Positions 23,819 to 45,474 of a DNA stretch of 46,293 nucleotides are shown here, piece after piece (the stretch's first letter is position 1; each line of letters begins with the position of its first letter). Source of the DNA: a virus. Lineage: Duplodnaviria > Heunggongvirae > Uroviricota > Caudoviricetes. A program made the position numbers and the translations under genes. The notes under the pieces were generated by a model, which made no database searches, had not been told where the DNA came from, and saw nothing but the letters and a program-made list of their open reading frames with translations. The DNA lies in the IMG/VR virus record IMGVR_UViG_2925897562_000003; one strand, written 5' to 3'.

Positions 23819-24036
23819 CAGAACCTCGCCAGCCGGTACCCGGGATGCCCCCGTCGTCGTGTAATCAGAGCCGCAAGGCGGCGCTCCCACTCCTGCCGTC
23901 CCTGCCGGATCTCAGATAAGTTTTCCATGGTCATCTGCTGACCATTAAAGGTGACGGATTTTCCGTCCAGCACCGCCATTTCAGCTTCCGTATAACGCTG
24001 AATCATGGCTTCGATATCATTCTGGTTCATAACCAT
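23818..24036 (-). CDS. W: Head-tail joining protein, lambda gpW-like
   Basis: 72 aa; C-terminal RRRGHPGY resembles lambda W RRRGPAGF; sits between terminase and portal. Confidence 0.6.
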   Translation of the reverse strand: MVMNQNDIEAMIQRYTEAEMAVLDGKSVTFNGQQMTMENLSEIRQGRQEWERRLAALITRRRGHPGYRLARF

Positions 24037-26129
24037 CCTCCGGAAGTCAGCCAGGGGTTAACATCGTCAGTTACTGTTTTCTTCCGTTTTTGTTTTTTAA
24101 CAGGCGTGGATACCGGTTCCGGTGAGGGTGACGGTTCGGTACTGTCCGGGACACACTCCAGCCAGGTTTCCCGGCTCGCCCATTCCGGTGCATCCGGCCA
24201 GCGGATCTTTTCGTATCCATGCAGAATGACCAGAGCCTCGGCATACACCATCAGGTCAAAGGCTTCGTTGGCACCGCGCCCCGGCTTACTCCATTTCCCG
24301 TCACTGCTCCGCTCTTCATACGTCAGTTCGTCGTAAAACCAGCTCCCCAGCCAGTCAGGAAAATGCACATAGCCGGGACCTGGCGAGTCACGCCATAACG
24401 CGTTATTCACCCGGTCTTTCAGGGCATCCGTCTGAAGAAGCCAGAGCGGCACATCACCTGCGGCCTGCGCCCGTCGGCCCGTTCGTCCGGTGTTATCAGG
24501 GAATGTACGGGTGATCAGTTTTGCGCGCCGGATGCTGTCGCCCTTAAACAGGTAAATACGTTTACCAAGGCCATCACGACGGCAACGACGCCAGAATTTA
24601 TAGGCATTATCAGTGACCCCGTCTTCACCGCCGGAGTCCACCGCCATTGCCATCAGTCGCATTTGTTGAGAAGGATCGGAGGCCAGCGGCCAGCTTTTAT
24701 GAAAAACATCCGTCAGCAGGACATCCCAGTCTTCCGGATAGCTGGCCGGATCAATTCGCTGGCTCTCCCCGTCGCTGTCACCGCGCAATGACTGCGTGAT
24801 GTTGTAACGATCAATAATCCAGCGTTCGCCACGGCTGCCATAGCCCGTTACCTGAACCACAAAACGGCGATGACGTCCCGCCTGCACATCCACTGTCGCC
24901 ACAAGGAAATTAACGCCATCCGGCACACTGCGGGAAGGAACTGGCTCTGCCCGCTGCTCAAGCAGTTCACTTTTTCGTTGCTCCATGCTGGCGCGGGGAA
25001 GATAAGGTAATCCCCAGTCAGTATTGATAACCGTCTTGAGTGTTTCTTCACTTCCGGTTGTCTCGTATTCCTGTTCTGCAGTAAGCAGTTTGTAAACGAG
25101 TTGCGAGAGTGTCTGGTAAGCAGCTGCCGGACCCTCCATCCAGAATGACGCAATACGTGAGCGTCGGGGATCACCATAACGACTACCATCCGCATTGATG
25201 GATTCACCATCCCGCAACCAGACCCCACGTCCGTTCAGCTCACGTTTTTGTTCAGGCATAATCCGTCCTGAACAGGAAGGACACTGAATATAAGCCGCCT
25301 CACTTGCCAGCACGGGATCGGCAATATCACGGAAACCAGCAACCACATCGCCGCAGGGCTGAAAATACTCACCACAGTGTGGACAGGGCCAGTACCAGCG
25401 ACGGCGATCGCCACGGTTATAGAGCGACAGTATCCCCGTGGTTGGTGGAGCCTCATGCGGTGAAGTCCGTCGCCATTTCACATCCTTCACATCCCTGCCG
25501 GGGGAACTCTCCACCAGCGTCATACCACTGGACATAAATGTTGTGGTACGTTTTGAGGCAAGAGAGAAAGCATCCCCCTCGCCATCAATATCTTCCGGAA
25601 AACGGTCATAATCCGTCAGCGCGACGCATTTATAATCTGATGAGGACATGATATTGACTGACGGCCAGCCGATTTTCAGGTAGTTACCAGCAAGGAATGT
25701 TCTGTCATAAACGTTGTTGTCATTTTTGTTCGGACTCAGGCGACTGACCACTTCCGGGCTGACGCGAAACGTTCTGGCGAGTCGTTTTTTGGAGTGTTCG
25801 CGGGCTTTTTCCTCCGTCATCTGAATGATCAGCATATCAGCAGGATCGCAAATCACGTTGTAAATCACCCAGCCGTCAATCAGGCCGATAGTCTTGCCGG
25901 TTCGTGCCGGGCCAACAAATATCACTGCGTCGTATTCACGCGAGGCCAGGCAGTTCATCGGCTCAATAACATACGGTGCCACCAGCGGATCCCACGGGAC
26001 TGAGTTCCCTGCCCCCATGGGCACCCGCATATACTGAGCAACGGCATCAGCAACCCGCATTCGCCTCGGTGCGCGAAGGATATAACCTGAATCGGTTCGT
26101 GCTGCCTTTGCGGTTTCCTGATTCAGCAT
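24027..26129 (-). CDS. A: Terminase large subunit (lambda gpA-like)
   Basis: 700 aa; Walker A VGPARTGKT; position after the small subunit. Confidence 0.9.
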   Translation of the reverse strand: MLNQETAKAARTDSGYILRAPRRMRVADAVAQYMRVPMGAGNSVPWDPLVAPYVIEPMNCLASREYDAVIFVGPARTGKTIGLIDGWVIYNVICDPADMLIIQMTEEKAREHSKKRLARTFRVSPEVVSRLSPNKNDNNVYDRTFLAGNYLKIGWPSVNIMSSSDYKCVALTDYDRFPEDIDGEGDAFSLASKRTTTFMSSGMTLVESSPGRDVKDVKWRRTSPHEAPPTTGILSLYNRGDRRRWYWPCPHCGEYFQPCGDVVAGFRDIADPVLASEAAYIQCPSCSGRIMPEQKRELNGRGVWLRDGESINADGSRYGDPRRSRIASFWMEGPAAAYQTLSQLVYKLLTAEQEYETTGSEETLKTVINTDWGLPYLPRASMEQRKSELLEQRAEPVPSRSVPDGVNFLVATVDVQAGRHRRFVVQVTGYGSRGERWIIDRYNITQSLRGDSDGESQRIDPASYPEDWDVLLTDVFHKSWPLASDPSQQMRLMAMAVDSGGEDGVTDNAYKFWRRCRRDGLGKRIYLFKGDSIRRAKLITRTFPDNTGRTGRRAQAAGDVPLWLLQTDALKDRVNNALWRDSPGPGYVHFPDWLGSWFYDELTYEERSSDGKWSKPGRGANEAFDLMVYAEALVILHGYEKIRWPDAPEWASRETWLECVPDSTEPSPSPEPVSTPVKKQKRKKTVTDDVNPWLTSGGWL

Positions 26130-27438: not shown

Positions 27439-27918
27439 TCATCGAAGGCATTGCGTCCTGATGTATTCCTGAAGCGTTCTCAGTGCTGTTTGGTCGCGGA
27501 TAATTCCGTCCCGGATACCGAGAACGTTTCGTCCAGCAACTGGAGAGAGTTCGACGGTGGCATCATTGCCCATGCCGGAGGCGCTGGAGGTTTCGGCTGA
27601 GGATGGCACAGGGCATTTTCCTTTGACGAGCACCCGACCACCATTATCAAGCTTGCGCCGAAGAGCATCATTTTCAGCTTTCGCATCAGCTAACTCCTTC
27701 GTATATTTATCATCGAGTGCATCAGCATCACGCTGGCGCTGCTGCATGTCAGTAATGGTGGCGTTCGCCTTCTCCAGTTCACTGGCCTTGTTATCGCGCT
27801 GTTCTTTGTAGGCGATTGCATTATCACGGTAATGATTAACAGCCCATGACAGGCAGACGATGATGCAGATAACCAGAGCGGAGATAATCGCGGTTACCCT
27901 GCTCATTGTTGCCCCCAC
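27439..27918 (-). CDS. Rz: Spanin inner-membrane subunit Rz
   Basis: 159 aa; N-terminal TM segment then coiled coil; follows the endolysin. Confidence 0.8.
27480..27686 (-). CDS. Rz1: Spanin outer-membrane lipoprotein Rz1 (embedded in Rz, +1 frame)
   Basis: MRKLKMML...VVGCSS lipobox, proline-rich; fully embedded in Rz. Confidence 0.7.
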
Positions 27919-28400
27919 AAACAGACCTCACGCTCAATCTCACGACGAGTCATCAGGCCTTTCCATTGCTTACCGCCAGCGTATGCCCAGCGACGTAGCT
28001 GGTCACATGCGCCCTTGATATCGCCCTGGTTTATTTTGCGAAGAAGAGTAGATGTTCTGAAATTGCCTGCGCCCACGTTATAGACGAACGAGTAAAGAGC
28101 GCCGCGCGTTGTTTCCGGTATATCGACTTTGATGTACGGGTTAATTTGTCTGGCTACCGTGGCAAGGTCTTTATTCAGGAGGGCTTTGCATTCTGCTTCG
28201 GTATACGTTTTACCGGGAATGATGTCTTTTCCTGTATGCCCGTGACATACAGTCCATACGCCAACGATATCTTTGTATGGTATGTAACTGACACCTTCCA
28301 GGCCATCGTCACCACTTGGGCCAGTGATTAACACTGATGCTATAGCAATTGCTCCGCCACCAATAGCAGCAGCAACTGCTTTTCGTAATGATGGAGGCAT
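27903..28400 (-). CDS. R: SAR endolysin (phage 21 R-like lysozyme)
   Basis: 165 aa; N-terminal Gly/Ala-rich SAR-like segment [16 protein letters not shown]; matches my recollection of R21. Confidence 0.85.
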
Positions 28401-28615
28401 TATTCACCTCTCGCAGCCTTGCGCTTATCTTCTTTAATCTTGAAATAAAGGTTTGTCAGGTACGTCAGCAGGCCAAATACCAGACTACCCAGCACACCTA
28501 TTGCCGCCCACTGTGAGGGCGTGACTTTATCGAGCAACTGTAAAAACCAGTACCCGGCACTACCTGCTGAGGTGCCATAGGCGACACCCGTTGTTAACTT
28601 ATCCATGGATTTCAT
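28400..28615 (-). CDS. S: Pinholin S (phage 21 S-like) with dual start MKSMDK
   Basis: [26 protein letters not shown]...[22 protein letters not shown]; two in-frame ATGs (28615 and 28606) as in S21-71/S21-68. Confidence 0.8.
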
Positions 28616-28682
28616 AACCCCACCTCGCAGATGCGGGTGCTGTGTAATGGAAATAAAAAGGCCACCTGACGTGGCCACCAGA

Positions 28683-29735
28683 TTATTTCCCCACCAGCTC
28701 GTTTATCTCTTTCACTGTCTGGTTAAACCGCTCTGACTCAAGCTCAACACCTAAGGCCCGACGCCCCAGCGCCATTGCTGCTTTTATTGTGGAACCGGAT
28801 CCCATAAAAAAATCAGCAACCAGATCACCAGGTCGACTACTGGCATTGATTATTTGCCTGAGCATATCCACCGGTTTCTCACACGGATGTTTACCCGGGT
28901 AGAACTGAACGGGTTTATGCATCCAGACATCGGTATAAGGCACGGAGACTGATACGGAGAAATAGCGCCGGAGAGATTTAAACTCATCCAGCAATTCAGA
29001 ATATTTGCGATTCAGTGAATCATAAGATGCCACCAGCTGGTGGTGTGGTTGTTCCAGTTGTTGTTCCTGAAACTTCTCTGCCGCTATACGGGAAAACAGT
29101 GCCTGTAACTTCCGATAGTCAGCCTCATTCGGCAACTGCCACTGACTGGCACCAAACCAGTGGGAAACCATATTTTTCTTACCTGTGGCTTCGGCAATTT
29201 GTTTTGCCGTTATACCCAGTTCGGCACGAGCATCCCTGAAATACGATATCAGCGGTGCCATTATGTGCTGTTTGAGTTCCCTTTCTTTTGCCGCATAGCC
29301 GTCACTTTTGCCGCGATATGGCCCCTGGTAATGTTCAGCAAACAGAACGCGCTCTGTGGCAGGAAAATATGCGCGCAGACTTTCTTTATTACACCCATTC
29401 CAACGTCCGGACGGCTTCGCCCAGATGATATGGTTAAGCACGTTGAAACGTTCACGCATCATGATCTCAATATCAGATGCCAAGCGATGCCCACAGAACA
29501 GGTAAAGGCTTCCGGCAGGTTTTAACACCCGCCAGAACTGGGCCAGACAGTGGTCCAGCCACTTAAGGTAATCTTCGTCCCCTTTCCACTGATTGTCCCA
29601 ACCGTTGGGTTTCACCTTGAAGTAAGGCGGATCGGTAACAATCAGGTCAATGGAATCATCAGGCAGGGACTGAATAAAATGCAGGCAATCAGCGTTGATT
29701 AAATCAACACTGTTTATTTTTACAGTATTTTTCAT
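28683..29735 (-). CDS. Orphan DNA amino-methyltransferase (N6-adenine or N4-cytosine; DPPY motif)
   Basis: IVTDPPYF catalytic motif near the N-terminus plus C-terminal FFMGSGST AdoMet motif; no partner endonuclease adjacent. Confidence 0.8.
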
Positions 29736-30353: not shown

Positions 30354-31280
30354 ATGAAAGTTAGAAGCATAGGATTTACAATAAATAACAATAACAAAAA
30401 TATTAATACCGTTGACGTAATGAATGCTTTTATCAACGCATCAAACAGAGAACACAGTCGCACAGACTATACTCGTAAAATTCTCATTTCGGATGTGAAT
30501 GATTTCTATTATGGATTAGTTGTCACATTCAGAAACCAAAAAAAGAACTGTAAGTCGCAATTTGTTGATGGTAAATTCCAGCTTAAAATTGAAGATCTTC
30601 AAGGAAGTGACAAACTTGCTAATTTCAACTTTTTCTTAATTAAAAAATCTAATCTTTCTGGTCTCTATATGTATCACCACGGTTCATGCAGTCTGAACAC
30701 TCTCTTTTCTCATTTAGAAACAATAAGTAATGAATTTATCAGAAATCAAAATAAAGAAGAAATAAAAAAACTTGGTGATAAACCAAAACAAAAAGAAGTA
30801 ACTGCAATAAATAAAAAATACAAAGAAAGACTGACTTTCAGCCTTATGACAAATAAAAACAACATTCAGAGTGTTTTATGTCAATTCAAAGAGATTAAAA
30901 GCACAAGCTTTAAATTTAATTATATAGATTTTAAAGGTGGACCAATGACTGCGCTTGAACAATTTGTTAACACCACCACAATAGATATGAATTTTAATTC
31001 TAGCGACAGAACAAAAGTGCAACAACTATCTCAGAATCTTTCAAATATTTATAATTCTATGAGTGGAGTTGCTAAAGCACAGGTTATTGCAGTAAACCAT
31101 GCAGGAATAGAAAAAACCATTGATTTTATGAACTGCCCTGTTTTTTTTGAAACATACGATTTCGATATAATTGCCGATAAAGTCAATGGATTGACAAACG
31201 ATAATTATACAACAAACCCTGTTTTTGATATGATAAAAGAAGAAATGCTGAACGGGACGAATAAAAATGCCTTTATATGA
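30354..31280 (+). CDS. Hypothetical protein (308 aa), visibly AT-rich gene, Asn/Lys-rich; first gene of the accessory cassette
   Basis: Long uninterrupted ORF on the strand opposite to the late genes; codon usage clearly unlike the surrounding phage genes (runs such as aataacaataacaaaaatattaat). Confidence 0.6.
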   Translation: MKVRSIGFTINNNNKNINTVDVMNAFINASNREHSRTDYTRKILISDVNDFYYGLVVTFRNQKKNCKSQFVDGKFQLKIEDLQGSDKLANFNFFLIKKSNLSGLYMYHHGSCSLNTLFSHLETISNEFIRNQNKEEIKKLGDKPKQKEVTAINKKYKERLTFSLMTNKNNIQSVLCQFKEIKSTSFKFNYIDFKGGPMTALEQFVNTTTIDMNFNSSDRTKVQQLSQNLSNIYNSMSGVAKAQVIAVNHAGIEKTIDFMNCPVFFETYDFDIIADKVNGLTNDNYTTNPVFDMIKEEMLNGTNKNAFI

Positions 31281-31411
31281 ATGGCTAATAAATAAAAGAT
31301 TGAGGTATCAGTACCTTACACTGCTTGCATTCTCGATCCTGGCATTGCTTGCACTTTACCTATTGTACAGAAACACACCTAAAGTAAGTGTTAACTTTTT
31401 TGATTTTTATC

Positions 31412-32481
31412 CTTGAATTGTCAAACCAAGTGCAACGATTTTTTGAAGTAAACTTCATAAGGTGTTTTCCAACCTAAACATTTACGTGGTCGTAAATTCA
31501 GTTTATTGATCACCTGTTGAATATCAACTTCGCTCCACTGATTGATGTCTTGGTGCTTCGGAAAGTATTCACGAAGTAACCCATTTGTATTTTCATTCGT
31601 TCCCCGTGTCCACGGTTGATGCGGCTCGGGGAAGTAAAATTCTACACCCAGTGCTTCTGTTACCAAACGATGTTGGGCAAATTCTTTACCACGGTCTGGC
31701 GTAATTGACCGCAATATATGTGAATCCAGCAATTCAATCATGGCTTTTTGGACTGCTTCGGCTTTTTTGGCAGGAATTTTCTTCACCAACTCAAAACGAC
31801 TTTTGCGTTCCGTCAGCGTCAGCAAACAAGCTCCACCCGCTTTACCCAGTACGGTATCGGCTTCCCAATGTCCAAAGCGACTGCGATTTTGCGCCGAAAT
31901 GGGACGGTCGTTCAAATGGTTGGATATCTGAATTTTGCCACGTTTTTCATGATGATTTTTTGTATGCCGTGTTTTGCCTTTGTGGCGCAGTTTGCGACTG
32001 GCTTTGCGTTCGCCTATATCAAACAACCCTGAATAAATACCACGATAAATGGTTGAATAACTAATGGATAATTCAGATTTTTCCAATTTTAATCGTGCGC
32101 TGATTTGTTCGGGCGACCAGTTTTCTGTCAGAAACTTTTCTTGCACCAAATTGAAATATTCAGGCTGCTCTAATTTGCGCTGTGCTTTGCTATTTTGACG
32201 ATGCTTCAAATAGCTGTTTTGTGCGTTCGTTGCACTGTAGCTTTCTAGAGCGTGTCGTTTCAGCTCGCGAGAAATGGTGCTGGAGCTACGTCCCAGTGCT
32301 TTGGCAATTTCTGCTTGTTTTTTGCCCTGTGCGAGTAAAATCATTATCTTTTCTCGCTCGTTTATTGTAAGATGTCGGTAGGAAGTACTCATCATTTGGA
32401 AGTGGTTTTTGTGTGGAAACAAAATTATATTCTAGTTGATGAGTACTTCTTTTTTTGTTGCACTTGGATTGTAAATTCAGC
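31412..32481 (-). mobile_element. IS30-family insertion sequence (about 1.07 kb), possibly ISApl1-like
   Basis: Single transposase ORF flanked by imperfect roughly 25-bp terminal inverted repeats (left TGAATTGTCAAACCAAGTGCAAC, right reverse complement TGAATTTACAATCCAAGTGCAAC); exact ends and target duplication not resolved. Confidence 0.8.
31421..32344 (-). CDS. IS30-family transposase (DDE); 307 aa from MILLAQ, ORF track extends to 32422
   Basis: N-terminal HTH (AEIAKALGRSSSTISRELKR), catalytic region HWEADTV...TPDRGKEF...TRGTNEN typical of IS30 transposases. Confidence 0.85.
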   Translation of the reverse strand: MILLAQGKKQAEIAKALGRSSSTISRELKRHALESYSATNAQNSYLKHRQNSKAQRKLEQPEYFNLVQEKFLTENWSPEQISARLKLEKSELSISYSTIYRGIYSGLFDIGERKASRKLRHKGKTRHTKNHHEKRGKIQISNHLNDRPISAQNRSRFGHWEADTVLGKAGGACLLTLTERKSRFELVKKIPAKKAEAVQKAMIELLDSHILRSITPDRGKEFAQHRLVTEALGVEFYFPEPHQPWTRGTNENTNGLLREYFPKHQDINQWSEVDIQQVINKLNLRPRKCLGWKTPYEVYFKKSLHLV

Positions 32482-32871
32482 TCATAAAAACTTACGAGGC
32501 TATCTCTTCTCCGGTTTTATTTCCGTGGGCTCATTTTTATTGAGCCTGCATACCTTTGTCATAATAAATTTACGCGATAAGGTTTTTGCAACTCAGGAAT
32601 ATAAGGAAATTTATAGCATTGCCACTGGTATACCTATTGACAAAATCAATGATAGTGTACTTTATAAACCTTTAGACAATTTATCCTCATTTATTAATAC
32701 ATCAATATTATGTTCTATCACAACAGCAATTGCACAATTCACTATTGGGCTTTCAACTAATTTATATGCATGCTTATTTTGCGTATGGCTTGCAATACTA
32801 ACGGTATTTCTTTTATTACATTGCCTCATCATAATCAGACAAAATATTAAAATTTTATTAAAGCAACAGAG

Positions 32872-32894
32872 AAAAAAAGGGGGGTAATCCCCCC
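32872..32894 (-). terminator. Strong rho-independent terminator immediately after Q (GGGGGG-ATTA-CCCCCC then TTTTTTT on minus strand)
   Basis: Perfect 6-bp G/C stem with 4-nt loop and 7-T run, 5 nt downstream of the Q stop; the loop also holds the stop codon of the plus-strand disrupted gene. Confidence 0.6.
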
Positions 32895-32899
32895 TAATA

Positions 32900-33241
32900 T
32901 TACAACATTGAAAGCACACCATCCAGAAAACCAAGAGCTGTTTGCAACTCTTTTCTTATTGTCCCATCAGAACACTTCTGCTTCTTTGCAATAGTTCTTA
33001 GTGAGATGCCGATAACAAAATGAGCAATAACCAACTCATACTCTTCGGGCTTATATTTCCGCAATCGCGCAACACAGCTGTCAATCATGATTCCTTCATC
33101 ATCATCGCATTGTTGACGTGTTTTCTTTCCATGAGGTAGTAAACCTTTAAACCCTGCAGCAACAGGCTGCCAGTCCACACCACTGTTATCTGCTGCAGCC
33201 CATGCACCCCAGCGGTCCAATACTTCATACATATCACGCAT
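32900..33241 (-). CDS. Q: Late antiterminator Q (QuuD / phage-82 Q-like)
   Basis: LDRWGAWAA...AAGFKGL...CDDD...CVARL resembles E. coli QuuD as recalled; start taken at ATG 33241 (ORF track uses an upstream TTG at 33256). Confidence 0.7.
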   Translation of the reverse strand: MRDMYEVLDRWGAWAAADNSGVDWQPVAAGFKGLLPHGKKTRQQCDDDEGIMIDSCVARLRKYKPEEYELVIAHFVIGISLRTIAKKQKCSDGTIRKELQTALGFLDGVLSML

Positions 33242-33258
33242 CAACTTTCTCCACAAAA

Positions 33259-34254
33259 TCAGGCCAGTACGCCAATTGCCAGTGCACGATCGATAAAACG
33301 AAATATCAGCTCCAGCTGGGAGCCATACTTCTCTTCAAATGCCACGGTATCCGCATGCAGCTCGTCGTGATGCTTTCTGCACAAAGGCAACACAAAGAGG
33401 TCATGCGCTTTTGTAGCCATTCCACCCTGACCGTGACCTATCAGGTGGTGGGGATCATCAGCAGGTTTTCCACAACATGCGCACGGCTGCGTCTTAACCC
33501 ATCGCGTGTACTTTTCATTAACCCAGCGGCGACGTTTGGGGCGTAACATAAAAGACTCCGGCGACTCCGGATCCACTTTCAGCGCCAGCACCTTTTTCGC
33601 CTTATCCTGGATGATGCTGGTGGCAGGAACCGAAGGCATAAGGTCACTTTCCCGGGTAACAGACGGCACAACAGGCTTCGGTAATCTCAGTGCCTTACGG
33701 GCTGCACTTTCCGGTAAGGCATCCGCCAGATCATTACGAATCAGCCACCAGCACAGTTCCGGCATTGTCACAACGTGACTATCATCAAAACCGAGATCCC
33801 GACGCACAACAGACAACACCCAGCGGGCACTGTTATCCGTTGCCATTGATTCCAGCCGTTCCGTGAACTGATCGCGCAGCTGGTTATCGCAGTGCCAGCA
33901 CAAACGGATTGCGCCCGGAGCGTGTCGCATTGTTGTCATGTTCTCGCTGTGCCAGTCGGAATGAGGCCACTGGCAGCCTTTTTCACGAAGTAACCAGCTT
34001 TCAAGACATTCCACGCCACCAGCACGACGGATCACTGCCTCATTGCGGAACACGGCCCGAACGGCAGGATCATCCGCCAGCGGTTGTGATGCCGCCGGAA
34101 CGGCACCACTGGCGAAAGATGAATAACGTTCCGGCTCAGGCTCCAGCAAGACACGCCCCTGCATAAACAAGGGCATCAGCTCTGAACCTGGTCTGAACAA
34201 TACGATCCCCATACGCGGGGCAATTTCAGGGGTCAGTAGTGCTCTCACGGTCAC
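33259..34254 (-). CDS. DUF968-family phage protein with C-terminal HNH/zinc-finger-like motif
   Basis: C-terminal CACCGKPADDPHHL...CRKHHDELH; typical nin-region position upstream of Q. Confidence 0.55.
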   Translation of the reverse strand: MTVRALLTPEIAPRMGIVLFRPGSELMPLFMQGRVLLEPEPERYSSFASGAVPAASQPLADDPAVRAVFRNEAVIRRAGGVECLESWLLREKGCQWPHSDWHSENMTTMRHAPGAIRLCWHCDNQLRDQFTERLESMATDNSARWVLSVVRRDLGFDDSHVVTMPELCWWLIRNDLADALPESAARKALRLPKPVVPSVTRESDLMPSVPATSIIQDKAKKVLALKVDPESPESFMLRPKRRRWVNEKYTRWVKTQPCACCGKPADDPHHLIGHGQGGMATKAHDLFVLPLCRKHHDELHADTVAFEEKYGSQLELIFRFIDRALAIGVLA

Positions 34255-34255
34255 C

Positions 34256-35065
34256 TCAATGAACGGTATCGAGCAGCTTTAACAGCTCAGGGAATCGGGA
34301 TTCGAAGAAATGCGGCTGCGTCTCGCGCGGATTTGCGGGACTGGTGATGTTCTTGCCGAACATGCAGCCTTTCGCCGTCAGCGACCAGAATTTTTTGATG
34401 TTGTTAATCGCAGTGCGGCTGTATCGTTCACGTTGTTCAACGATCCCCAGCTTCGCCATCTGGTGATATGCCTGATTAGCTGTCAGGCGGATACCATGCT
34501 GCTTCAGCAGTGCGCTCAGTGACAGCGTGGGGCGGCTTGAGCCATCAGGCGCGTCAACAGGAGCATCAATGGCATAGCGCGGTGCCAGATTCGGTAAGCC
34601 AACAGCCTCCTGGAGTTTCTGACAGGCACCAAGCACTGAAGAGTTAGACAGGTTTAATTCCCGGCGCATAAAGTCCAGCAGAATCACACCAGCCTGCATC
34701 TTGTCAGCAGCCTGTCCGGATAATTTTTCCGGTGCGCTTGTTACCATGTCGAAAGTACGGATCACCTTCAGATGGAATGACGGGCTGATCCACATTGCAT
34801 AGGCATACACCAGTTCCTTGCAGACATACGTTCCCCGTTCATTTCCCCCATGAATCACACTCACCGGGTCAACACCCAAATTCTGGGTGTTGGTCAATTC
34901 ATGAACAAGCTCAACAGTTTGTTGGCTGGAAAGAAACTTTCCTGGCTCCTTGGTTCTGGCATTTGCACCAGATGCTACTGCTGCGCGATGCAGATCGTTC
35001 AGGCTGTAACGCCCATAAGCATCACGACGAACTTCAATACCATCAATGACCATCAGATTATTCAT
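34256..35065 (-). CDS. KilA-N domain protein (putative antirepressor-like)
   Basis: N-terminal VIDGIEVRRDAYGRYSLNDLHRA resembles the KilA-N/APSES domain. Confidence 0.6.
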   Translation of the reverse strand: MNNLMVIDGIEVRRDAYGRYSLNDLHRAAVASGANARTKEPGKFLSSQQTVELVHELTNTQNLGVDPVSVIHGGNERGTYVCKELVYAYAMWISPSFHLKVIRTFDMVTSAPEKLSGQAADKMQAGVILLDFMRRELNLSNSSVLGACQKLQEAVGLPNLAPRYAIDAPVDAPDGSSRPTLSLSALLKQHGIRLTANQAYHQMAKLGIVEQRERYSRTAINNIKKFWSLTAKGCMFGKNITSPANPRETQPHFFESRFPELLKLLDTVH

Positions 35066-35084
35066 ACTTCGTTTCTCCTCTTAA

Positions 35085-35474
35085 TCAGGCGGCTGCACCC
35101 GCCGGTTTCTCATACTTACTGATAGTGATCTCGACCTTCCCTTTCGGGATAACCGGTCCCCACTCCACCAGCATTCTTTTCACCTGTCTGTCGTCTTCCC
35201 ACACACCCGCGTGGGTCAGGGCGTCAAACAGCGCCTTGTTATAGTTGTCCAGATCGCGGATCCGGTTATCCGGAGGAAACAACACGATCTCCACTGAAGC
35301 AGGTGCCGACGTTGGTTTCGGCAGACGACGTAACTGCTCAACTATTGCTGCGCACGCCGCGCTCTGAAATTTTCGCCCCGCCTCGCTTATCAGGCTCTTA
35401 CCAGCAAATGCCCCTTTGTTGGGGTGTCGCCAGTACGTGTTCACACTGGGCGGGAAAGGAAGGATCAACTTCAT
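35085..35474 (-). CDS. rusA: Holliday junction resolvase RusA
   Basis: 129 aa; LPFPPSVNTYWRH...RDLDNYNKALFDALTHAGVWEDDRQV matches the RusA family. Confidence 0.85.
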   Translation of the reverse strand: MKLILPFPPSVNTYWRHPNKGAFAGKSLISEAGRKFQSAACAAIVEQLRRLPKPTSAPASVEIVLFPPDNRIRDLDNYNKALFDALTHAGVWEDDRQVKRMLVEWGPVIPKGKVEITISKYEKPAGAAA

Positions 35475-35797
35475 ACTTTCAGGCCCCTCTCATGTAACCA
35501 GTGGGCTGCACGCAACCTGGCGTTCTCCTCACCGGCAAGCAGTGCGCGGATGATACCGACCGCCTCGCTGTCGTCGTCCTTCACCGCGATATGAAGCGTT
35601 ATCCCCCGGGCCACGCCACGCTTTATCGTGATGACACCTTTTTTCTCCAGTGCGCGAAGATGCTCCACCGCTGCATTCACTGAACGATATCCCAGCATGG
35701 TTGCCACCTCCTGATTGGTTGGCGGGAAGCCTCGTTCTTTCTGGTAAGAAATCAGCATATCCAGCACCTGCTGCTGGCATTGAGTTAATGTCGTCAT
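35471..35797 (-). CDS. LexA N-terminal DNA-binding-domain homolog lacking the S24 peptidase domain
   Basis: LTQCQQQVLDMLISYQKERGFPPTNQEVATMLGYRSVNAAVEHLRALEKKGVITIKRGVARGITL aligns by eye with the LexA N-terminal domain as recalled; protein ends at 108 aa with no Ser/Lys-dyad region. Confidence 0.6.
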   Translation of the reverse strand: MTTLTQCQQQVLDMLISYQKERGFPPTNQEVATMLGYRSVNAAVEHLRALEKKGVITIKRGVARGITLHIAVKDDDSEAVGIIRALLAGEENARLRAAHWLHERGLKV

Positions 35798-36480
35798 GCC
35801 GCCATCTCCCTGACCAGTTTTTCTGCCTGCAGGCGAACCTGCGCCAGAAAGGCCTCACCACATGCCTCAAGTTCATCACGCCCGATGTAGCTGATTGCCG
35901 GTCCCTTCCAGGTCTTGTCGAAAACAGCAATAGCACCAGCGAAGAAAGCGCCTGTCGGCACCTGCTTCTCGTCCTTCGGTATAAACCAGGCAGGCAGTTC
36001 AAAACCAATACGCCCGCGAATAAAAGCAATATGATCTGCATCTTCCGGCCACCACACTTCGCTGGTGGCCGCTTTGATCAGGAAAACATAGCGCCCGCCC
36101 TTATCACGCATGGCACTGGCATGTTTCATGATGTAACGCATGCCGGTGATGTATTGCCCCTCATGCTGACTGGCGCGGCTGTATGGGGGATTACCAAAGG
36201 CAGCACCTTTAAGCTCCGCAAGACGTTCTGACCAGTCATGCGCCAGCGCGTTATCTTCCGCCGTGTAATACGCGGCACATTTGGCGTTATCACCGTCAGT
36301 AAACAGATCCAGAACAAACGGGCCAAACAGGGTGTTAATTCCCCAGAAAATGTTGTCCGGCGTGCGCCACTGATCGCCCACTTCCTTCAGTTCATGGGCT
36401 GGTTTGTTCCGCAGTTCCACCAGCGCCTGGCAATATTTATTACTCATTAAGCCCCCACGTAATTCCCTGACAGATACCAC
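35794..36480 (-). CDS. Phage-type DNA N6-adenine methyltransferase (orphan)
   Basis: NPPY motif (FGNPPYS) and overall resemblance to phage Dam-family methyltransferases; no partner nuclease. Confidence 0.75.
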   Translation of the reverse strand: MVSVRELRGGLMSNKYCQALVELRNKPAHELKEVGDQWRTPDNIFWGINTLFGPFVLDLFTDGDNAKCAAYYTAEDNALAHDWSERLAELKGAAFGNPPYSRASQHEGQYITGMRYIMKHASAMRDKGGRYVFLIKAATSEVWWPEDADHIAFIRGRIGFELPAWFIPKDEKQVPTGAFFAGAIAVFDKTWKGPAISYIGRDELEACGEAFLAQVRLQAEKLVREMAA

Positions 36481-36941
36481 TCTTCACCCGATGCAGCGCG
36501 CTTGCTGCTTTTCCGTAAGCACCGCTCACGACGCGCCAGAAAATTGTTTCGTTCTGGCTGGGAGTGGCTTTCACGGAATGCCGCCATCCACACGGTTGCA
36601 GCACGACGGTATAAGCCCCTGGACTCCAGTTCTTCAGCCTGGCGGGTCAGGCACAAAATCACCCGTGGATCGTTAGTGCCGACATAGAAATTGCGCACAG
36701 GTCTGGTTTCTCGAACTGGTTGTGGTTCCGGTTCCTGCGCTCTCTCAGTCAGGCGCGGGAAATGTCTGCGTGTATCTCCTTCACAACGGTGAGCCACACG
36801 CCCACTCTGACGTAACTTGCTTGCTGACTGCAGAACGCGCTGCCGTGAGTAACCTGCAAAAGCATCCGCAATGTCTCCGGAAGTACACCCCGGATGGGCT
36901 TCAATGAATTTCTGAACTTCATTCAAAAGACTCATGATCAC
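36447..36941 (-). CDS. Regulator with PerC/Pch-like C-terminal domain
   Basis: AEELESRGLYRRAATVWMAAF...RRERCL resembles the PerC-family signature as recalled. Confidence 0.5.
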   Translation of the reverse strand: MIMSLLNEVQKFIEAHPGCTSGDIADAFAGYSRQRVLQSASKLRQSGRVAHRCEGDTRRHFPRLTERAQEPEPQPVRETRPVRNFYVGTNDPRVILCLTRQAEELESRGLYRRAATVWMAAFRESHSQPERNNFLARRERCLRKSSKRAASGEEWYLSGNYVGA

Positions 36942-37756
36942 CCCCTGAATCCTGCCGGGATCTGGCTGTAGTCCACGTTGTCGTAACTGGCTTTGAAGTA
37001 CGGGTCCTCGCGTCTGGCTGCAGATACCGCAGGAACTTCCCAGGATTCTTCGAAATGACGATCCGGACCAAAGAACGTGACAGCCTGTTTCACAAATTGT
37101 GTGCCGCTGTTACCCATCGCAGATACCCAGCCCGCGTAGCGTTTCACACCTTCCAGCATGGTTTCGGGGTTTACTCCCTCATTCAAACGGGCTTTCCAGG
37201 CTTTGAAGGCTGCAGATTTTGAATTGCCACCAGCACGTTTGGGATATACCAGCCATGCCTGCTCAAACTCCGGAGAGTATTCCGGTCGGTTTGAACGAAC
37301 TCGCACGGACTCATCAACTGATGCACCAACAGCTATTGGTTCATTGACTGGTTCTTTGACAGGTTCAAAAGAGTGACTGGTTCTGGGTGAATCTCCTGCA
37401 CTACCCCCTGGTGCAACTCCTGCACTACCTGGTGAATTTGCTGCACCAGATAGTGAATTATTTGCACTACCCCCTAGTGAATCTCCTGCACCATCCAGAT
37501 GAAGGAGATAGATATTACTTGAGTTACCTTTTTCACCTTTCCGGGTGACTTTTTTTACCAGCCCGGACTCACAAAGGGCCGCAATATGATTCATCACAGA
37601 ACGTTTGCTAATCTCGCACTGGTCAGCAATATGCTGGTAGCTGGGCCAGCACTCACCCTGATCGCTGGCATTATCAGCCAGCTTGATCAGAACCAGTTTT
37701 CGCAATGGATTACCCACTCGAATTTTCATCGCTTTAACCATCAGCTCCATACTCAT
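36938..37756 (-). CDS. Replication initiation protein (lambda O analog; N-terminal winged HTH, Gly/Ser/Ala linker, C-terminal domain)
   Basis: HTH region LVLIKLADNASDQGECWPSYQHIADQCEISKRSVMNHIAAL; internal iteron-like DNA repeats; position downstream of cro/cII-like genes. Confidence 0.55.
   Translation of the reverse strand: MSMELMVKAMKIRVGNPLRKLVLIKLADNASDQGECWPSYQHIADQCEISKRSVMNHIAALCESGLVKKVTRKGEKGNSSNIYLLHLDGAGDSLGGSANNSLSGAANSPGSAGVAPGGSAGDSPRTSHSFEPVKEPVNEPIAVGASVDESVRVRSNRPEYSPEFEQAWLVYPKRAGGNSKSAAFKAWKARLNEGVNPETMLEGVKRYAGWVSAMGNSGTQFVKQAVTFFGPDRHFEESWEVPAVSAARREDPYFKASYDNVDYSQIPAGFRG
37386..37496. repeat. Five iteron-like direct repeats (21-24 bp, GGTGAATCTCCTGCACTACCCCCT family) inside the replication gene; putative replication origin
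   Basis: Repeats read directly: GGTGAATCTCCTGCACTACCCCCT / GGTGCAACTCCTGCACTACCT / GGTGAATTTGCTGCACCAGATA / GTGAATTATTTGCACTACCCCCTA / GTGAATCTCCTGCACCATCC, followed by an A/T-rich stretch. Confidence 0.5.
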
Positions 37757-37989
37757 GCTGCACCTCCGAGATGCTTCATGTTTTTTCCGGAGCGAAAGGC
37801 TATAAGCGGCATACTGACGCGGTAATTACGGCCCAGCGGTTCACAAACCACCTTCTGACATTCACGGTCAACCAGGCTAACACGTAGAACATGCCCTGCA
37901 GGCGTGGTGTACCACTGCCCAACTGTAGGAATTGATGTTTTTTTACGCTGAAGCAAACGGCAAATATTGAGGATCAACGGATTAAGCAT
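37753..37989 (-). CDS. Hypothetical protein (78 aa)
   Basis: ORF in operon context only. Confidence 0.3.
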   Translation of the reverse strand: MLNPLILNICRLLQRKKTSIPTVGQWYTTPAGHVLRVSLVDRECQKVVCEPLGRNYRVSMPLIAFRSGKNMKHLGGAA

Positions 37990-38818
37990 GACGATGCCCT
38001 CCGCTGATATTCAGGAGACGGTGAATATGAAAATTAGCCTTATCCGCCAAACGGATACGTTCAGCCTGCAAGTTAAGAAGGGTTTCTACCAGAACCTGAT
38101 GCGCCTGCGGATCCGAAAGAGTTACCTTGCGCAGAGCACGTAGTGCAGTTGTTACATAACTGAGTTTATGTAAGTCTTCATCATTCAGACGAGTGAGGGC
38201 TGGGACAGTAGCCATGATGGCAGCCTCCGATAACAGTGAATTACCTTCACCACCGGAAACGCCAATTTCGCTGGTGGTGAACTGAACGGGGTTGGCGTAA
38301 CCGGCGTTATCGGAAACCGGCGCACCTTTCGGTGCCCCCGTCCAGCCCACCATAATTTGGGTGTGCGCAGACGCAGACGATAAAAAAGACGCTGGCGCGT
38401 CATATATCGCCGATAACATTTCCAGGACGCCAATCCCGGCACCCGCTTTATAAGGTGCCTGAACAGTGTAACGTCCCGGAATGGCAGAATCAATGTGCTG
38501 GTGGTCCTTCACACTCAACAAAATCACGCCTGAATTTCCACAAAGGACTAAAGCACTCATGCGGGTAGTCTTTGCGAAGATAGATAACGCGCTGTGTTTC
38601 TGGCTCCCAACGAATAACATGGACATAAAGCCCTCTTCCATCACGAAACCAGCGGTTAAGTTCCTGCACAACTCGCCCCCCACAGTCAGGTAAAGTTCTC
38701 TGTGGTTACTTACAGCCAGGTGATTTGGTAATCTGCATTCATGCCGTAACAACAGGTGTTCAGCGACACTGACCACCAGCTGTTGCGACAAACGGTTATT
38801 TGCCGTTAAACTGTTCAT
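37982..38818 (-). CDS. Hypothetical early-right operon protein (278 aa)
   Basis: ORF in operon context between the cII-like and replication genes; no family recognised. Confidence 0.4.
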   Translation of the reverse strand: MNSLTANNRLSQQLVVSVAEHLLLRHECRLPNHLAVSNHRELYLTVGGELCRNLTAGFVMEEGFMSMLFVGSQKHSALSIFAKTTRMSALVLCGNSGVILLSVKDHQHIDSAIPGRYTVQAPYKAGAGIGVLEMLSAIYDAPASFLSSASAHTQIMVGWTGAPKGAPVSDNAGYANPVQFTTSEIGVSGGEGNSLLSEAAIMATVPALTRLNDEDLHKLSYVTTALRALRKVTLSDPQAHQVLVETLLNLQAERIRLADKANFHIHRLLNISGGHRHA

Positions 38819-39378
38819 GCGTTAGTTTCTCCACAGACACAAAACGCCACGACGCCCGGAGCTGCACACTCGCGGGCGTCACTCTTTTCTGGAGCGCAAA
38901 AGATTTTGTAGACCAGTGCTGCATGCTCCTGGAGCTTCGAAATTGACAGATACAACTCATCATTAATTGCTGTCTGCTCGTGTGGCTCCACTACCCCATC
39001 TTCGATTGCCGAACGAATCTGCTTTGAGTAACTCCCGATCTGTTCGATGACTTCCAGCAGGCGCTGGTTTATATCGGCGTTCTCTACTTCCTCAATTTCA
39101 GGAAGCGATACAAACACCCCACCAGCAGACTGTGCGACAGCATCCGCAATGTAGTGAGTGCCAGCCGCGCGCTGTAAAATCATTGCCCATCCCAGCGGGA
39201 AAATCTGATCGCCATCTGCACGAAGGCGGTTGAATAAAGCGTTCTCTGTTACATCCAGCCACTCAGCAGCTTCAGCGTAACCCCCCGGCAACGCCGCGAT
39301 CGTTTTTCTGACAGCTTTCACGTACCACTCAGGCTGTTTTTCTACTTTCCAGTGATGCTTACCCACGGTTAGCCTCAT
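38815..39378 (-). CDS. Putative phage regulatory protein (CII-like, CP76-type)
   Basis: 187 aa immediately downstream of cro; assignment by position and loose resemblance only. Confidence 0.4.
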   Translation of the reverse strand: MRLTVGKHHWKVEKQPEWYVKAVRKTIAALPGGYAEAAEWLDVTENALFNRLRADGDQIFPLGWAMILQRAAGTHYIADAVAQSAGGVFVSLPEIEEVENADINQRLLEVIEQIGSYSKQIRSAIEDGVVEPHEQTAINDELYLSISKLQEHAALVYKIFCAPEKSDARECAAPGVVAFCVCGETNA

Positions 39379-39409
39379 CGTTCTGTGGTTAAAAATTGAA
39401 GGTGTTCTG

Positions 39410-39610
39410 TTAATCTTTCGGATAGATATCCGGTCTTAAGTCAGATTTCGTAATTGCACCTGACGTGCATTGCTCAAGTTTTTTAGCCAGCACAAAACTG
39501 GCTTTTTTATAACCATTGAAAACCAGCCGTAAGTAGCCAGGTGTTGAGCCAACTTTTCCGGCCAACTCGCCCTGCTGTTCTTTGGTTAAAGAGTCCCAAT
39601 ACGCTTTCAT
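39410..39610 (-). CDS. cro: Cro-like HTH repressor (66 aa from MKAYWDSL)
   Basis: Small HTH protein divergent from the cI-like gene; ATG at 39608-39610. Confidence 0.7.
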   Translation of the reverse strand: MKAYWDSLTKEQQGELAGKVGSTPGYLRLVFNGYKKASFVLAKKLEQCTSGAITKSDLRPDIYPKD

Positions 39611-39700
39611 ACAATATGTACCTCCGATATACATATTACATGATTGAGATGAACCTTCAAGATACTTGTACCTTATCGGTACAAAGGTTTTAATTTCTTT
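39611..39700. promoter_or_regulatory. Divergent promoter/operator region between cro and cI, with inverted repeat TTGTACC-N5-GGTACAA (39666-39684)
   Basis: Palindromes containing GTAC cores read directly in the 90-bp intergenic region. Confidence 0.5.
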
Positions 39701-40375
39701 ATGAAAACAGTCCATGACATCCGGCGGTCTAACGCCAGAAAACTGAGAGATGGTGTTGGCGGGAATTCTTCCTTTGCCACCATGATTGATCGCGAGCCAA
39801 CCCAGACCAGCAGGTTTATGGGAGATGGTGCTACTAAAAATATCGGTGACAGCATGGCAAGGCACATCGAAAAATGTTTCGACCTGCCTGTCGGATGGCT
39901 TGATCAAGAACACCAGACCACGAACATCACAAAAAAACCTGATGTTTCAATCACTAACAAACAAATAACGTTAGTCCCTGTCATATCATGGGTACAGGCC
40001 GGAGCATGGAAAGAAGTTGGCTATTCTGAGGTTGATTTGAGCACAGCAGAAACTTATCCCTGCCCTGTACCCTGTGGCGAAATGACTTATATCTTGCGGG
40101 TGATTGGTGATTCAATGATTGATGAGTACCGCCCGGGAGACATGATTTTTGTTGATCCTGAAGTCCCTGCCTGCCACGGTGACGACGTTATTGCATTGAT
40201 GCACGATTCAGGCGAAACCACCTTCAAGCGATTGATAGAAGATGGAACACAGCGTTATCTCAAAGCATTAAACCCAAACTGGCCTGAGCCTTACATTAAG
40301 ATTAACGGTAATTGCTCTATAATTGGTACAGTGATTTTCTCGGGAAAACCAAGAAGATACACAATAAAGGCCTAA
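39701..40375 (+). CDS. cI: CI-like prophage repressor (HTH plus S24 LexA-like autopeptidase domain)
   Basis: 224 aa; C-terminal region VIGDSM...; divergent from cro. Confidence 0.85.
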   Translation: MKTVHDIRRSNARKLRDGVGGNSSFATMIDREPTQTSRFMGDGATKNIGDSMARHIEKCFDLPVGWLDQEHQTTNITKKPDVSITNKQITLVPVISWVQAGAWKEVGYSEVDLSTAETYPCPVPCGEMTYILRVIGDSMIDEYRPGDMIFVDPEVPACHGDDVIALMHDSGETTFKRLIEDGTQRYLKALNPNWPEPYIKINGNCSIIGTVIFSGKPRRYTIKA

Positions 40376-40387
40376 TCAATATTTATG

Positions 40388-40410
40388 AACCTGCTTCGGC
40401 AGGTTTTTTT
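40388..40410 (+). terminator. Rho-independent terminator after cI (AACCTGC-ttcg-GCAGGTT then TTTTTTT)
   Basis: 7-bp stem, tetraloop, T-run read directly. Confidence 0.65.
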
Positions 40411-40414
40411 ATAC

Positions 40415-40452
40415 TTGACAATGTACCCATGAGATACATAATGTATCCAAAA
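40415..40452 (+). promoter_or_regulatory. Early-left promoter candidate (TTGACA, 17 bp, ATAATG) overlapping a 15-bp perfect palindrome GATACATAATGTATC
   Basis: Consensus -35, near-consensus -10 and a perfect palindrome over the -10 read directly; downstream of the cI terminator. Confidence 0.5.
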
Positions 40453-40851
40453 GAAACATAAGGCAGGCAAGATTCAAACAAAATTTGGTTGTAACACGGC
40501 GTATGGCACATGCGTCGTTAGCGGTCTGGGGACGTTAAAGGGGACAATCCACTTCTTGCTCGGGCAAACAAACCAGGTAGCCGGAATGTGCAAGTCAATG
40601 ATGATGCAGATAAGACGCCTAACCAGCGTGGCGATTCGGTTTGACGCCTGAGAAGAGACCAGGGTGCAACGATGAGGGCATTTATGGAGCCGCGACAAAG
40701 TGTGGTGCCGTAACTGGCTAAGTGCTCTCAGCGTTGTGGTAATCCGCGAAATGGCGCGGCGGTAAGTATGGCGGGGTTACTCTTTCCCCGTTGAGGACAC
40801 CGGATTGTCAGGTTGACCATACGCCTGAGTGACAACCCCACCACAACAGCC

Positions 40852-40907
40852 ACTGCTTTGGCGGTACCAGTTTGTACCCTTGCTTCCGGCTGGTACCGCT
40901 CTTTTTA
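40852..40907 (+). ncRNA. dicF: DicF-like small RNA candidate ending in an intrinsic terminator
   Basis: TTTGGCGGTACCAGTTT matches the core of E. coli DicF as I recall it (TTTGGCGGTATCAGTTTT); followed by a 10-bp stem GCGGTACCAG/CTGGTACCGC and CTCTTTTT. Confidence 0.4.
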
Positions 40908-41043
40908 CAAAACAGAGAAGAGCATCACCGGACGACGGGCTCATAACCCAATCCATCCGGGCGGCTGCCACCGCAGGTGTTCTTCTCCGTTTTGTGGAGA
41001 AACCAACCGACCTTGCAGGGTCGATATGATGAGGAGCAGCAAA

Positions 41044-41406
41044 ATGGCTAGCGAACGCAGTACTGATGTGCAGGCATTTATTGGGGAGCTGGACGGCGGC
41101 GTATTTGAAACCAAAATCGGCGCAGTTCTCAGTGAAGTCGCTTCCGGTGTGATGAACACGAAAACCAAAGGTAAGGTCTCGCTCAACCTGGAAATCGAAC
41201 CGTTTGATGAGAATCGTGTGAAAATCAAACACAAACTCTCGTATGTTCGCCCGACTAACCGCGGGAAAATTTCCGAAGAAGACACCACCGAAACGCCGAT
41301 GTATGTCAATCGCGGTGGTCGCCTGACTATTCTGCAGGAAGACCAGGGACAATTACTGACTCTTGCTGGTGAACCTGACGGAAAACTCCGCGCAGCAGGT
41401 CATTAA
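41044..41406 (+). CDS. Hypothetical early-left protein (120 aa; possibly YfdP-like)
   Basis: ATG at 41044 with GAGGAG RBS; ORF track extends upstream over the sRNA region. Confidence 0.5.
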   Translation: MASERSTDVQAFIGELDGGVFETKIGAVLSEVASGVMNTKTKGKVSLNLEIEPFDENRVKIKHKLSYVRPTNRGKISEEDTTETPMYVNRGGRLTILQEDQGQLLTLAGEPDGKLRAAGH

Positions 41407-41471
41407 TATCGTTCTTAATTAACTGATTATTTATCTCATCACTGAATATCTTTATATAGTGAGGACTTATT

Positions 41472-42296
41472 ATGTCTCAGAACTTAGACGCAACCGCAAT
41501 TAATCAAATCCATGCCCTTATTTCTGCTCAGGGTGTTAATGAAATTATCAGTAAGATTGGTGCCGATGCTGTGGCATTGCCTGAGAATTTCCGCATTCAT
41601 GATCTGGAAAAATTTAATTTAAATCGCTTCCGTTTCCGTGGTGCGCTTTCCACTGCCAGCATCGATGACTTTACCCGTTATTCTAAAGATCTTGCAGATG
41701 AAGGCACCCGCTGCTTTATCGATGCTGATAATATGCGTGCCGTCAGTGTGCTTAACCTGGGTACTATTGATGAACCAGGTCACGCAGATAACACCGCCAC
41801 TCTCAAACTGAAAAAGACAGCACCGTTCTCTGCTCTGTTGTCTGTTAATGGCGAGCGTAACTCCCAGAAATCACTGGCAGAATGGATTGAAGACTGGGCC
41901 GACTACCTTGTGGGCTTTGATGCTAATGGTGACACCATTCAGGCAACAAAAGCGGCTGCGGCGGTCCGTAAAATCACGATTGAAGCAAACCAGACCGCTG
42001 ATTTTGAAGATAATGACTTCAGCGGCAAACGCTCCCTGATGGAGTCTGTCGAAGCGAAGACCAAAGACATTATGCCAGTGGCATTTGAATTTAAATGCGT
42101 TCCGTTTGAAGGCCTTAAAGAACGTCCGTTTAAATTACGCCTCAGCATTATCACTGGCGATCGTCCTGTACTGGTTCTGCGCATTATTCAGCTGGAAGCG
42201 GTGCAGGAAGAAATGGCTAACGAATTTCGTGATCTGCTTGTTGAGAAATTTAAAGACAGCAAAGTAGAAACCTTTATTGGTACTTTCACCGCCTGA
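41472..42296 (+). CDS. Hypothetical phage protein (274 aa; YfdQ-like by size and context)
   Basis: ORF with GAGGA RBS; same length and gene order as the CPS-53 yfdQ-yfdR-yfdS cluster as I recall it. Confidence 0.5.
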
Positions 42297-42423
42297 TTTC
42301 ATTACTGCAAATGCCCCTGCGGGGGCATTTATGGAAACATAATTTACTCAATAATCGCCGGATGGTGATGGCTTCCTTTTACCAGAATTCAGCACGGTGC
42401 AGCGCATATACGTGGAGAACAAA

Positions 42424-42960
42424 ATGTCATTTATTAAAACTTTTTCCGGGAAGCATTTTTATTATGACAGGATAAATAAAGACGACATCGATATTAACGA
42501 TATCGCGGTTTCCCTTTCAAATATCTGTCGCTTTGCCGGTCATCTTTCGCACTTCTACAGCGTCGCCCAACATGCGGTTCTTTGCAGCCAGCTGGTGCCG
42601 CAGGAATTTGCTTTTGAAGCGTTAATGCATGATGCAACAGAAGCGTATTGCCAGGACATCCCCGCACCACTGAAACGACTTCTTCCTGACTATAAACGGA
42701 TGGAAGAAAAAATAGACGCCGTAATCCGTGAGAAATACGGGTTACCTCCTGTTATGAGCACGCCAGTGAAATATGCCGATCTCATCATGCTGGCAACCGA
42801 ACGCCGCGATCTCGGGCTTGATGATGGCTCTTTCTGGCCTGTGCTGGAAGGTATCCCGGCAACAGAGATGTTCAACGTGATTCCACTGGCTCCAGGCCAT
42901 GCCTACGGGATGTTTATGGAACGCTTTAACGAATTATCGGAGTTACGCAAATGCGCATGA
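42424..42960 (+). CDS. HD-domain phosphohydrolase (YfdR-like 5'-deoxynucleotidase), 178 aa
   Basis: HD signature ...AQHAV...HDATEAYCQDIP...; ATG at 42424 with GGAGA RBS (ORF track starts at GTG 42397). Confidence 0.7.
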   Translation: MSFIKTFSGKHFYYDRINKDDIDINDIAVSLSNICRFAGHLSHFYSVAQHAVLCSQLVPQEFAFEALMHDATEAYCQDIPAPLKRLLPDYKRMEEKIDAVIREKYGLPPVMSTPVKYADLIMLATERRDLGLDDGSFWPVLEGIPATEMFNVIPLAPGHAYGMFMERFNELSELRKCA

Positions 42961-43313
42961 GTGTTTTCGAAATGGAAGGGTTTCTTCGCGGGAAATGTGT
43001 ACCGCGAGATCTGAAAGTGAACGAAACAAATGCTGAGTACCTGGTACGTAAATTCGACGCGCTTGAAGCTAAATGTGCGGCACTGGAAAGCAAAATAATA
43101 CCAGTGTCAGCTGAACTGCCACCAGCAAATGAAAGTGTTCTGTTATTTGATGCTAACGGAGAAGGCTGGCTGATTGGCTGGCGTTCTCTCTGGTACACCT
43201 GGGGACAAAAAGAAACCGGAGAATGGCAGTGGACATTTCAGGTCGGGGACCTTGAAAACGTCAATATCACTCACTGGGCAGTAATGCCGAAAGCACCAGA
43301 GACTAAGAAATGA
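42951..43313 (+). CDS. DUF551-like phage protein (YfdS-like)
   Basis: 120 aa; Trp-rich C-terminal region typical of DUF551. Confidence 0.45.
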   Translation: MRMSVFEMEGFLRGKCVPRDLKVNETNAEYLVRKFDALEAKCAALESKIIPVSAELPPANESVLLFDANGEGWLIGWRSLWYTWGQKETGEWQWTFQVGDLENVNITHWAVMPKAPETKK

Positions 43314-43525
43314 GCGTGATAAAAACTCATACAGGAATTGTTATCACCCGAGACGGTGAAAAGCGGATGAAATTACATTCCACTGAAACGTCCTGGGTTG
43401 CCGGACGTTGTGAATCCTACGACAAAAAGACTGGTTACCGTTGGGGGGCACCTAACATGCGTCGCCGTCTGCTACTGGACAGCATCAGGCCAATAAAACA
43501 GGTAGCAACCAGGGAACAAAATTAA
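43310..43525 (+). CDS. Hypothetical protein (71 aa)
   Basis: ORF in operon context. Confidence 0.35.
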   Translation: MSVIKTHTGIVITRDGEKRMKLHSTETSWVAGRCESYDKKTGYRWGAPNMRRRLLLDSIRPIKQVATREQN

Positions 43526-45471: not shown

Positions 45472-45474
45472 CAA

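Follow-up and report, generated by a model that had tools for sequence, protein, structure and literature searches.

The 46,293-nucleotide stretch of DNA considered here, IMG/VR virus record IMGVR_UViG_2925897562_000003 and hereafter the window, is a lambda-like Escherichia coli prophage in which one gene has been cut in two by an insertion sequence (IS). The intruder is a complete copy of ISApl1, an element of 1070 base pairs (bp) lying on the minus strand at positions 31412–32481. The gene it enters encodes a predicted membrane protein of 182 amino acids, the second member of a two-gene cassette. ISApl1 belongs to the IS30 family, was first described in Actinobacillus pleuropneumoniae, mobilizes mcr-1 and is the flanking IS of Tn6330. 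It is an already known and thoroughly described element, its insertion here is of the ordinary kind, and the element itself adds nothing new. We have almost no doubt that it got there by simple transposition of a single ISApl1 copy, the target being one of the prophage's accessory (moron) genes, which is AT-rich.

The boundaries of the element come from comparison with prophages in which the site is empty. At the target the uninterrupted allele (loci L001 and L002) reads TTTTTATC running directly into ATAAAAAC, whereas the window reads TTTTTA-TC-[31412..32481]-TC-ATAAAAAC. It follows that the element is exactly 1070 bp long and that the dinucleotide TC was duplicated on insertion, its left copy at 31410–31411 and its right copy at 32482–32483, where the empty site has TC only once. 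This is the 2-bp target-site duplication characteristic of ISApl1. An earlier sequence-only reading of this DNA had placed the element at 31412–32481, coordinates that prove correct to the base, and had proposed looking for a target-site duplication and an uninterrupted allele. Both exist: the flanks are one gene in phage mEp460_4F5 and in E. coli O104:H4 (LR595868.1, NZ_CP027394.1). The entire 3-kb region, minus about 1.07 kb, is present in phages mEp460_4F5 and vB_EcoS-569R4; E. coli WAT also has an empty site, its matches being spaced 1072 bp closer together than in the window; and the left flank is found at ≥99% identity in 217 complete E. coli genomes. Megablast matches running 8 to 20 bp past the IS ends had hinted at a longer element, an idea that the empty-site comparison dismissed. 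The overrun arises because other ISApl1 sites have similar AT-rich target flanks.

The site itself is of the kind that ISApl1 chooses. ISApl1 entered an AT-rich palindrome of 15 bp, TTTTTAT-C-ATAAAAA, and GC content falls to 27% over the 52 bp around it, against 31% for the cassette and 50% for the window. Much the same flanks, TTTTTAT-NN and then an A-rich stretch, surround two other simple ISApl1 insertions, those in dosC and aslB. The target bias of ISApl1 has been published (PMC5404521), and a site of 27% GC reading TTTTTA-TC-ATAAAAA conforms to it; the low GC content of the cassette as a whole fits the same preference.

The gene can be put back together without a seam. Its 5′ fragment (31267–31411, plus strand) holds 48 codons and one base, and its 3′ fragment (32484–32887, plus strand) holds 134 codons and the stop. 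Joining the two, which deletes 31412–32483, yields a 182-residue protein identical to WP_001131905.1, annotated as hypothetical in E. coli O104:H4 (locus L002, 3968–4516). With this exact restoration and the empty sites in related prophages, the claim of the sequence-only reading that the flanks form one continuous gene is borne out. Its description of the insertion as phase-preserving fares less well. The frame does pass from 1 before the element to 2 after it, because the gene is lengthened by 1072 bp, one more than a multiple of 3, but the host frame is not preserved through the element: it meets a TGA at 31414–31416, the first three bases of the inverted-repeat core, after 48 native codons and one proline. 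This is, then, an ordinary gene disruption, with loss of the 182-residue membrane protein. That the protein is a membrane protein, as had also been claimed, is a reasonable prediction, and several passes are predicted, with at least three strong hydrophobic segments (about residues 15–34, 55–78 and 135–170) and an all-helical AlphaFold2 model of four long helices at a mean confidence (pLDDT) of 76.6. If so, the truncated product would keep roughly the first transmembrane helix only.

As for the element, its identity was suspected from the start, and here too the earlier reading was right, both on the family and on the name. The window copy agrees at 1069 of 1070 positions with the ISApl1 of plasmid pMCR_W2-5 (locus L003) that lies directly upstream of mcr-1.1. 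The single mismatch lies at position 32402, 7 nucleotides upstream of the transposase ATG, where the window has G and the plasmid A; the same G occurs in the pap2-side ISApl1 copies of chromosomal Tn6330 that we checked. Identity is complete (1070/1070) with many E. coli copies, chromosomal and plasmid-borne, and was verified as exact for eight of them. A megablast search of PLSDB with 31380–32520 matched 448 plasmids, 430 of them at ≥99%, and among the matches listed the annotation was always “IS30-like element ISApl1 family transposase.” The hosts of these plasmids are chiefly Escherichia, Salmonella and Klebsiella, with Actinobacillus, Glaesserella and Pasteurella also represented. Of 5,426 complete E. 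coli genomes, 234 carry ISApl1; the places add up to 928, and a single genome can have as many as 41. None of 50,697 phage records carries it.

The ends and the transposase tell the same story. The left inverted repeat (IRL), at the transposase-proximal end, occupies 32455–32481 on the minus strand with the sequence GCTGAATTTACAATCCAAGTGCAACAA, and matches the right inverted repeat (IRR; 31412–31438, minus strand) at 21 of 27 positions; the core (31414–31436 with 32457–32479) is complementary at 20 of 23. In published ISApl1 the inverted repeats are 27 bp long and disagree at six positions (PMC5404521), precisely the agreement seen here. The imperfect terminal repeats of the sequence-only reading are therefore real, though they measure 27 bp with six mismatches and not about 25 bp. 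A degenerate pattern built on them occurs at just two sites in the window, the two ends of this element, where none would be expected by chance. Between the ends lies an intact transposase coding sequence of 324 codons (31421–32395, minus strand), placed relative to the IS ends as is WP_012478345.1 in loci L003 and L011–L018; the open reading frame (ORF) runs from a TTG at 32422 down to 31421 and would give 333 residues, the annotated ATG being at 32395. The protein scores 309 bits against the NCBIfam IS30 transposase model NF033563 (cut-off 80). The Pfam helix-turn-helix domain HTH_38 is above its cut-off (E = 2.9e-16), and the integrase-core domain rve falls below its own (29.0 bits against 32.6). 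A single DDE transposase with an N-terminal helix-turn-helix and an integrase-core domain, fitting the IS30 family model, is the hallmark of that family. With its transposase intact and both ends present, this copy is presumably still mobile.

An ISApl1 in an E. coli prophage inevitably raises the question of mcr-1, and the sequence-only reading had implied such a link. Could the element be one end, or a single-ended remnant, of Tn6330 (ISApl1-mcr-1-pap2-ISApl1), carrying colistin resistance into the prophage? Its role as the mobilizer of mcr-1 speaks for the idea, as do copies 100% identical to it that adjoin pap2 in several E. coli chromosomes: five of the eight exactly identical copies checked do so, and are therefore the downstream copy of Tn6330. 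We nevertheless regard the idea as wildly improbable. Tn6330 consists of two direct ISApl1 repeats flanking mcr-1-pap2, and the window has neither the second repeat nor the genes between them. The inverted-repeat pattern occurs in it only twice, as the two ends of one element, and neither tblastn with MCR-1 nor blastn with the mcr-1-pap2 segment found a match anywhere in its 46 kb. Moreover, each end of the IS adjoins one half of a single host gene, and the TC duplication on the two sides matches. One ISApl1 without mcr-1 or pap2 makes this a simple insertion, not Tn6330; the composite transposon is rejected for the window, where the IS is single and has its own duplication, and the supposed mcr-1 link does not apply there.

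Nothing contradicts a simple transposition. Searches for the same insertion elsewhere, however, were all negative. The exact IS junction is absent from the 5,426 complete E. coli genomes when matches spanning the junction are sought, and the exact 44-nucleotide junction does not occur in the GTDB species representatives. An exact look-up of the 49-residue truncated product, and of a 171-residue chimeric ORF created by the insertion, found neither in the protein and contig collection. The insertion at this site is thus without independent confirmation outside the present assembly, and it appears unrecorded in the collections searched. These results invite another explanation, in which the IS is a repeat misplaced during assembly and the gene is intact in the source strain; repeats that occupy up to 41 places in a genome, as ISApl1 does, are hard to assemble from short reads. 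A misplaced repeat, however, would not be framed by a perfect duplication of 2 bp at a site of the kind that ISApl1 prefers, and joining its flanks would not recover the wild-type protein exactly. An assembly error is accordingly very unlikely in our judgment, and a genuine transposition by far the better account.

How might the insertion have come about? ISApl1 and the IS30 family transpose by a copy-out-paste-in route, via a circular intermediate or inverted-repeat junction (PMC5821093, PMC6349718). Going by the ISApl1 and IS30 literature (PMC5821093, PMC5404521), the element would have arrived in the prophage by this route, through a circular intermediate. Its donor would have been another copy in that cell, most probably an ISApl1 or a Tn6330 on a plasmid or the chromosome. 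The TC duplication would go back to a staggered 2-bp cut in the AT-rich, roughly palindromic target. As a consequence, the TGA in the IS end truncates the host gene after 48 codons. The upstream gene of the cassette is left intact, deprived of its membrane partner, and the rest of the prophage is untouched.

Might the IS do more than disrupt, by driving or blocking transcription of neighboring prophage genes? There are two places to look. One is the chimeric ORF (32372–32887, plus strand, 171 residues), which begins inside ISApl1 and reads on, without a change of frame, into the host gene's 3′ fragment. It is a mechanically called ORF, antisense to the 5′ end of the transposase gene. The other is late transcription from the antiterminator gene Q to lysis: Q (32900–33256), the methylase gene and the lysis genes all lie on the minus strand, with the IS between Q and the others, and if the late promoter lies next to Q, late transcripts would cross the IS in the transposase's own sense direction. 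Against an effect of this kind, a chimeric 171-residue protein would lack the first transmembrane helix, and a consensus scan found no outward plus-strand promoter at the IRL end. The scan returned no more hits than shuffled sequence does, so it is uninformative and says nothing on IS-driven transcription. We think a regulatory role unlikely, and regulatory effects of the insertion stand unsupported. Between Q and the interrupted gene, a GC-rich hairpin at 32878–32895, reading AGGGGGGATTACCCCCCT and then TTTTTTT on the minus strand, looks like a terminator in the consensus scan. The hairpin is a strong one and lies directly after Q, in the region of the 12-bp gap that separates the stops of Q (32900) and of the membrane-protein gene convergent with it (32887).

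The cassette that ISApl1 entered deserves attention in its own right. Its first gene (30354–31280, plus strand) is intact, encodes 308 residues with a RexA/RdgC-like fold and overlaps the interrupted gene by 14 bp. The pair sits on the plus strand between Q and the methylase gene, both on the opposite strand. Homologues of both proteins are found across Enterobacterales, down to about 42 to 45% identity, with no precomputed Pfam domain and no informative name. The same cassette occurs in prophages of Yersinia ruckeri and Kosakonia, convergent with Phage_antitermQ and upstream of the lysis genes, so between Q and lysis; in lambdoid prophages of Escherichia, Klebsiella, Salmonella, Yersinia, Kosakonia and others, the pair is always convergent with Q. 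In three such loci (L004 6001–7450, L007 6001–7450 and L009 284–1733) the 308-residue protein is conserved at about 49 to 58% identity, and in locus L008 the second gene was not called, leaving a gap at 6054–6597. Frameshifted versions exist in other genomes (P0034, P0053), as does a 289-residue protein (P0002) that fuses the end of the 308-residue gene to the 182-residue gene; the cassette therefore also changes by mutations other than IS insertion.

What might such a pair do? It is conceivable, and we offer it tentatively while leaning against it ourselves, that the cassette is an undescribed RexAB-like exclusion or abortive-infection pair, of which the interrupted gene would be the RexB-like half. 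The lambda RexA/RexB system shuts out superinfecting phages by depolarizing the membrane. The reading draws on the fold, on the architecture of the gene pair and on its conserved position; Rex sequence models go unmatched. The 308-residue protein has the RexA-type fold, a split globular domain with a dimerization domain, which is shared with RdgC, and a small polytopic membrane partner is encoded immediately downstream, to judge from the 14-bp overlap, the hydrophobic segments and the four-helix model. By sequence models, neither protein belongs to the RexA or RexB families. The Pfam models PF15969/PF15968 and the PADLOC models PDLC02339/02340 (RexA/RexB) match neither of them at E = 10 (Pfam) or E = 1 (PADLOC), where lambda RexA and RexB, as positive controls, match their own models at E < 1e-60; hhalign against lambda RexA and RexB gives probabilities of at most 0.2%. 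More broadly, Pfam, NCBIfam and PADLOC returned nothing for the cassette proteins, PHROGs only phrog_2802 (function unknown), and a profile search of PDB sequences only chance-level matches. A Foldseek search of BFVD with the model of the membrane protein gave no match at E ≤ 0.001 and no named RexB. Its best match there was a protein of the uncultured phage ctylc9; a 314-residue protein of the same phage matches the soluble partner, so the gene pair recurs.

The surrounding genes are those of a lambda-like prophage: an integrase (43752–44927), an S24 repressor (39701–40375), Phage_antitermQ (Q), a DNA methylase (28683–29735, minus strand), a lysozyme (27903–28400), a large terminase (24027–26129) and a tail fiber (4511–7471). 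Over 33000–46293 the closest prophages are those of E. coli WAT (100.0% identity) and MB06171 (99.9%). Within the counterpart of this region, relatives carry other IS elements, one of the IS21 family in WAT and ISEc68 in E. coli XD35, so the prophage lineage repeatedly collects IS insertions. The left end of the window (1–2719 and 3084–3857), just beyond the tail-fiber genes, has genes for a restriction endonuclease of the EcoRII type and, convergent with it, a C-5 cytosine methyltransferase, followed by one for a GIY-YIG domain protein. The endonuclease is a 402-residue ORF with EcoRII-N and EcoRII-C domains whose ATG starts at the first base of the window. ARAGORN found no tRNA genes in the window; in the related O104:H4 prophage, one gene for tRNA-Ile and two for tRNA-Arg lie a short way downstream of the methylase homologue (L002 1085–1336, corresponding to 28400–28683 of the window).

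What does the insertion mean? A chromosomal, prophage-borne ISApl1 identical to the copies in Tn6330 implies that an active ISApl1 donor, often one associated with mcr-1, was once in the strain or is there still. As a marker, ISApl1 tells of contact with the mcr-1 mobilome, which makes the remainder of the source genome worth checking for mcr-1. The insertion is also a clean natural knock-out of one gene in a conserved, uncharacterized two-gene prophage cassette. Should the pair turn out to be Rex-like, its membrane half would have been knocked out naturally here, leaving a RexA-like protein without its partner. Were the cassette shown to act in defense, isogenic lysogens with empty sites (for example WAT or MB06171) and the ISApl1 allele would be ready-made material for comparison.

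Set beside the systems it resembles, the element is ISApl1 in every respect: its length of 1070 bp, its sequence, its 27-bp inverted repeats, its 2-bp duplication, its AT-rich target with a G/C-containing center and the coordinates of its WP_012478345.1 transposase. The element itself shows no difference, and only the insertion site sets it apart. With Tn6330 it shares the same IS, identical copies of which are the pap2-side copy of chromosomal Tn6330, whereas in the window the IS is single, has its own duplication and is accompanied by neither mcr-1 nor pap2. Comparison of the cassette with lambda RexA and RexB is less straightforward. The two pairs have no similarity at the level of sequence; the cassette converges on Q in the late region, whereas lambda rex is next to cI; and the membrane protein has 182 residues against the 144 of RexB. 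The likeness to lambda lies in the arrangement: a soluble protein of RexA-type fold, followed by a small polytopic membrane protein.
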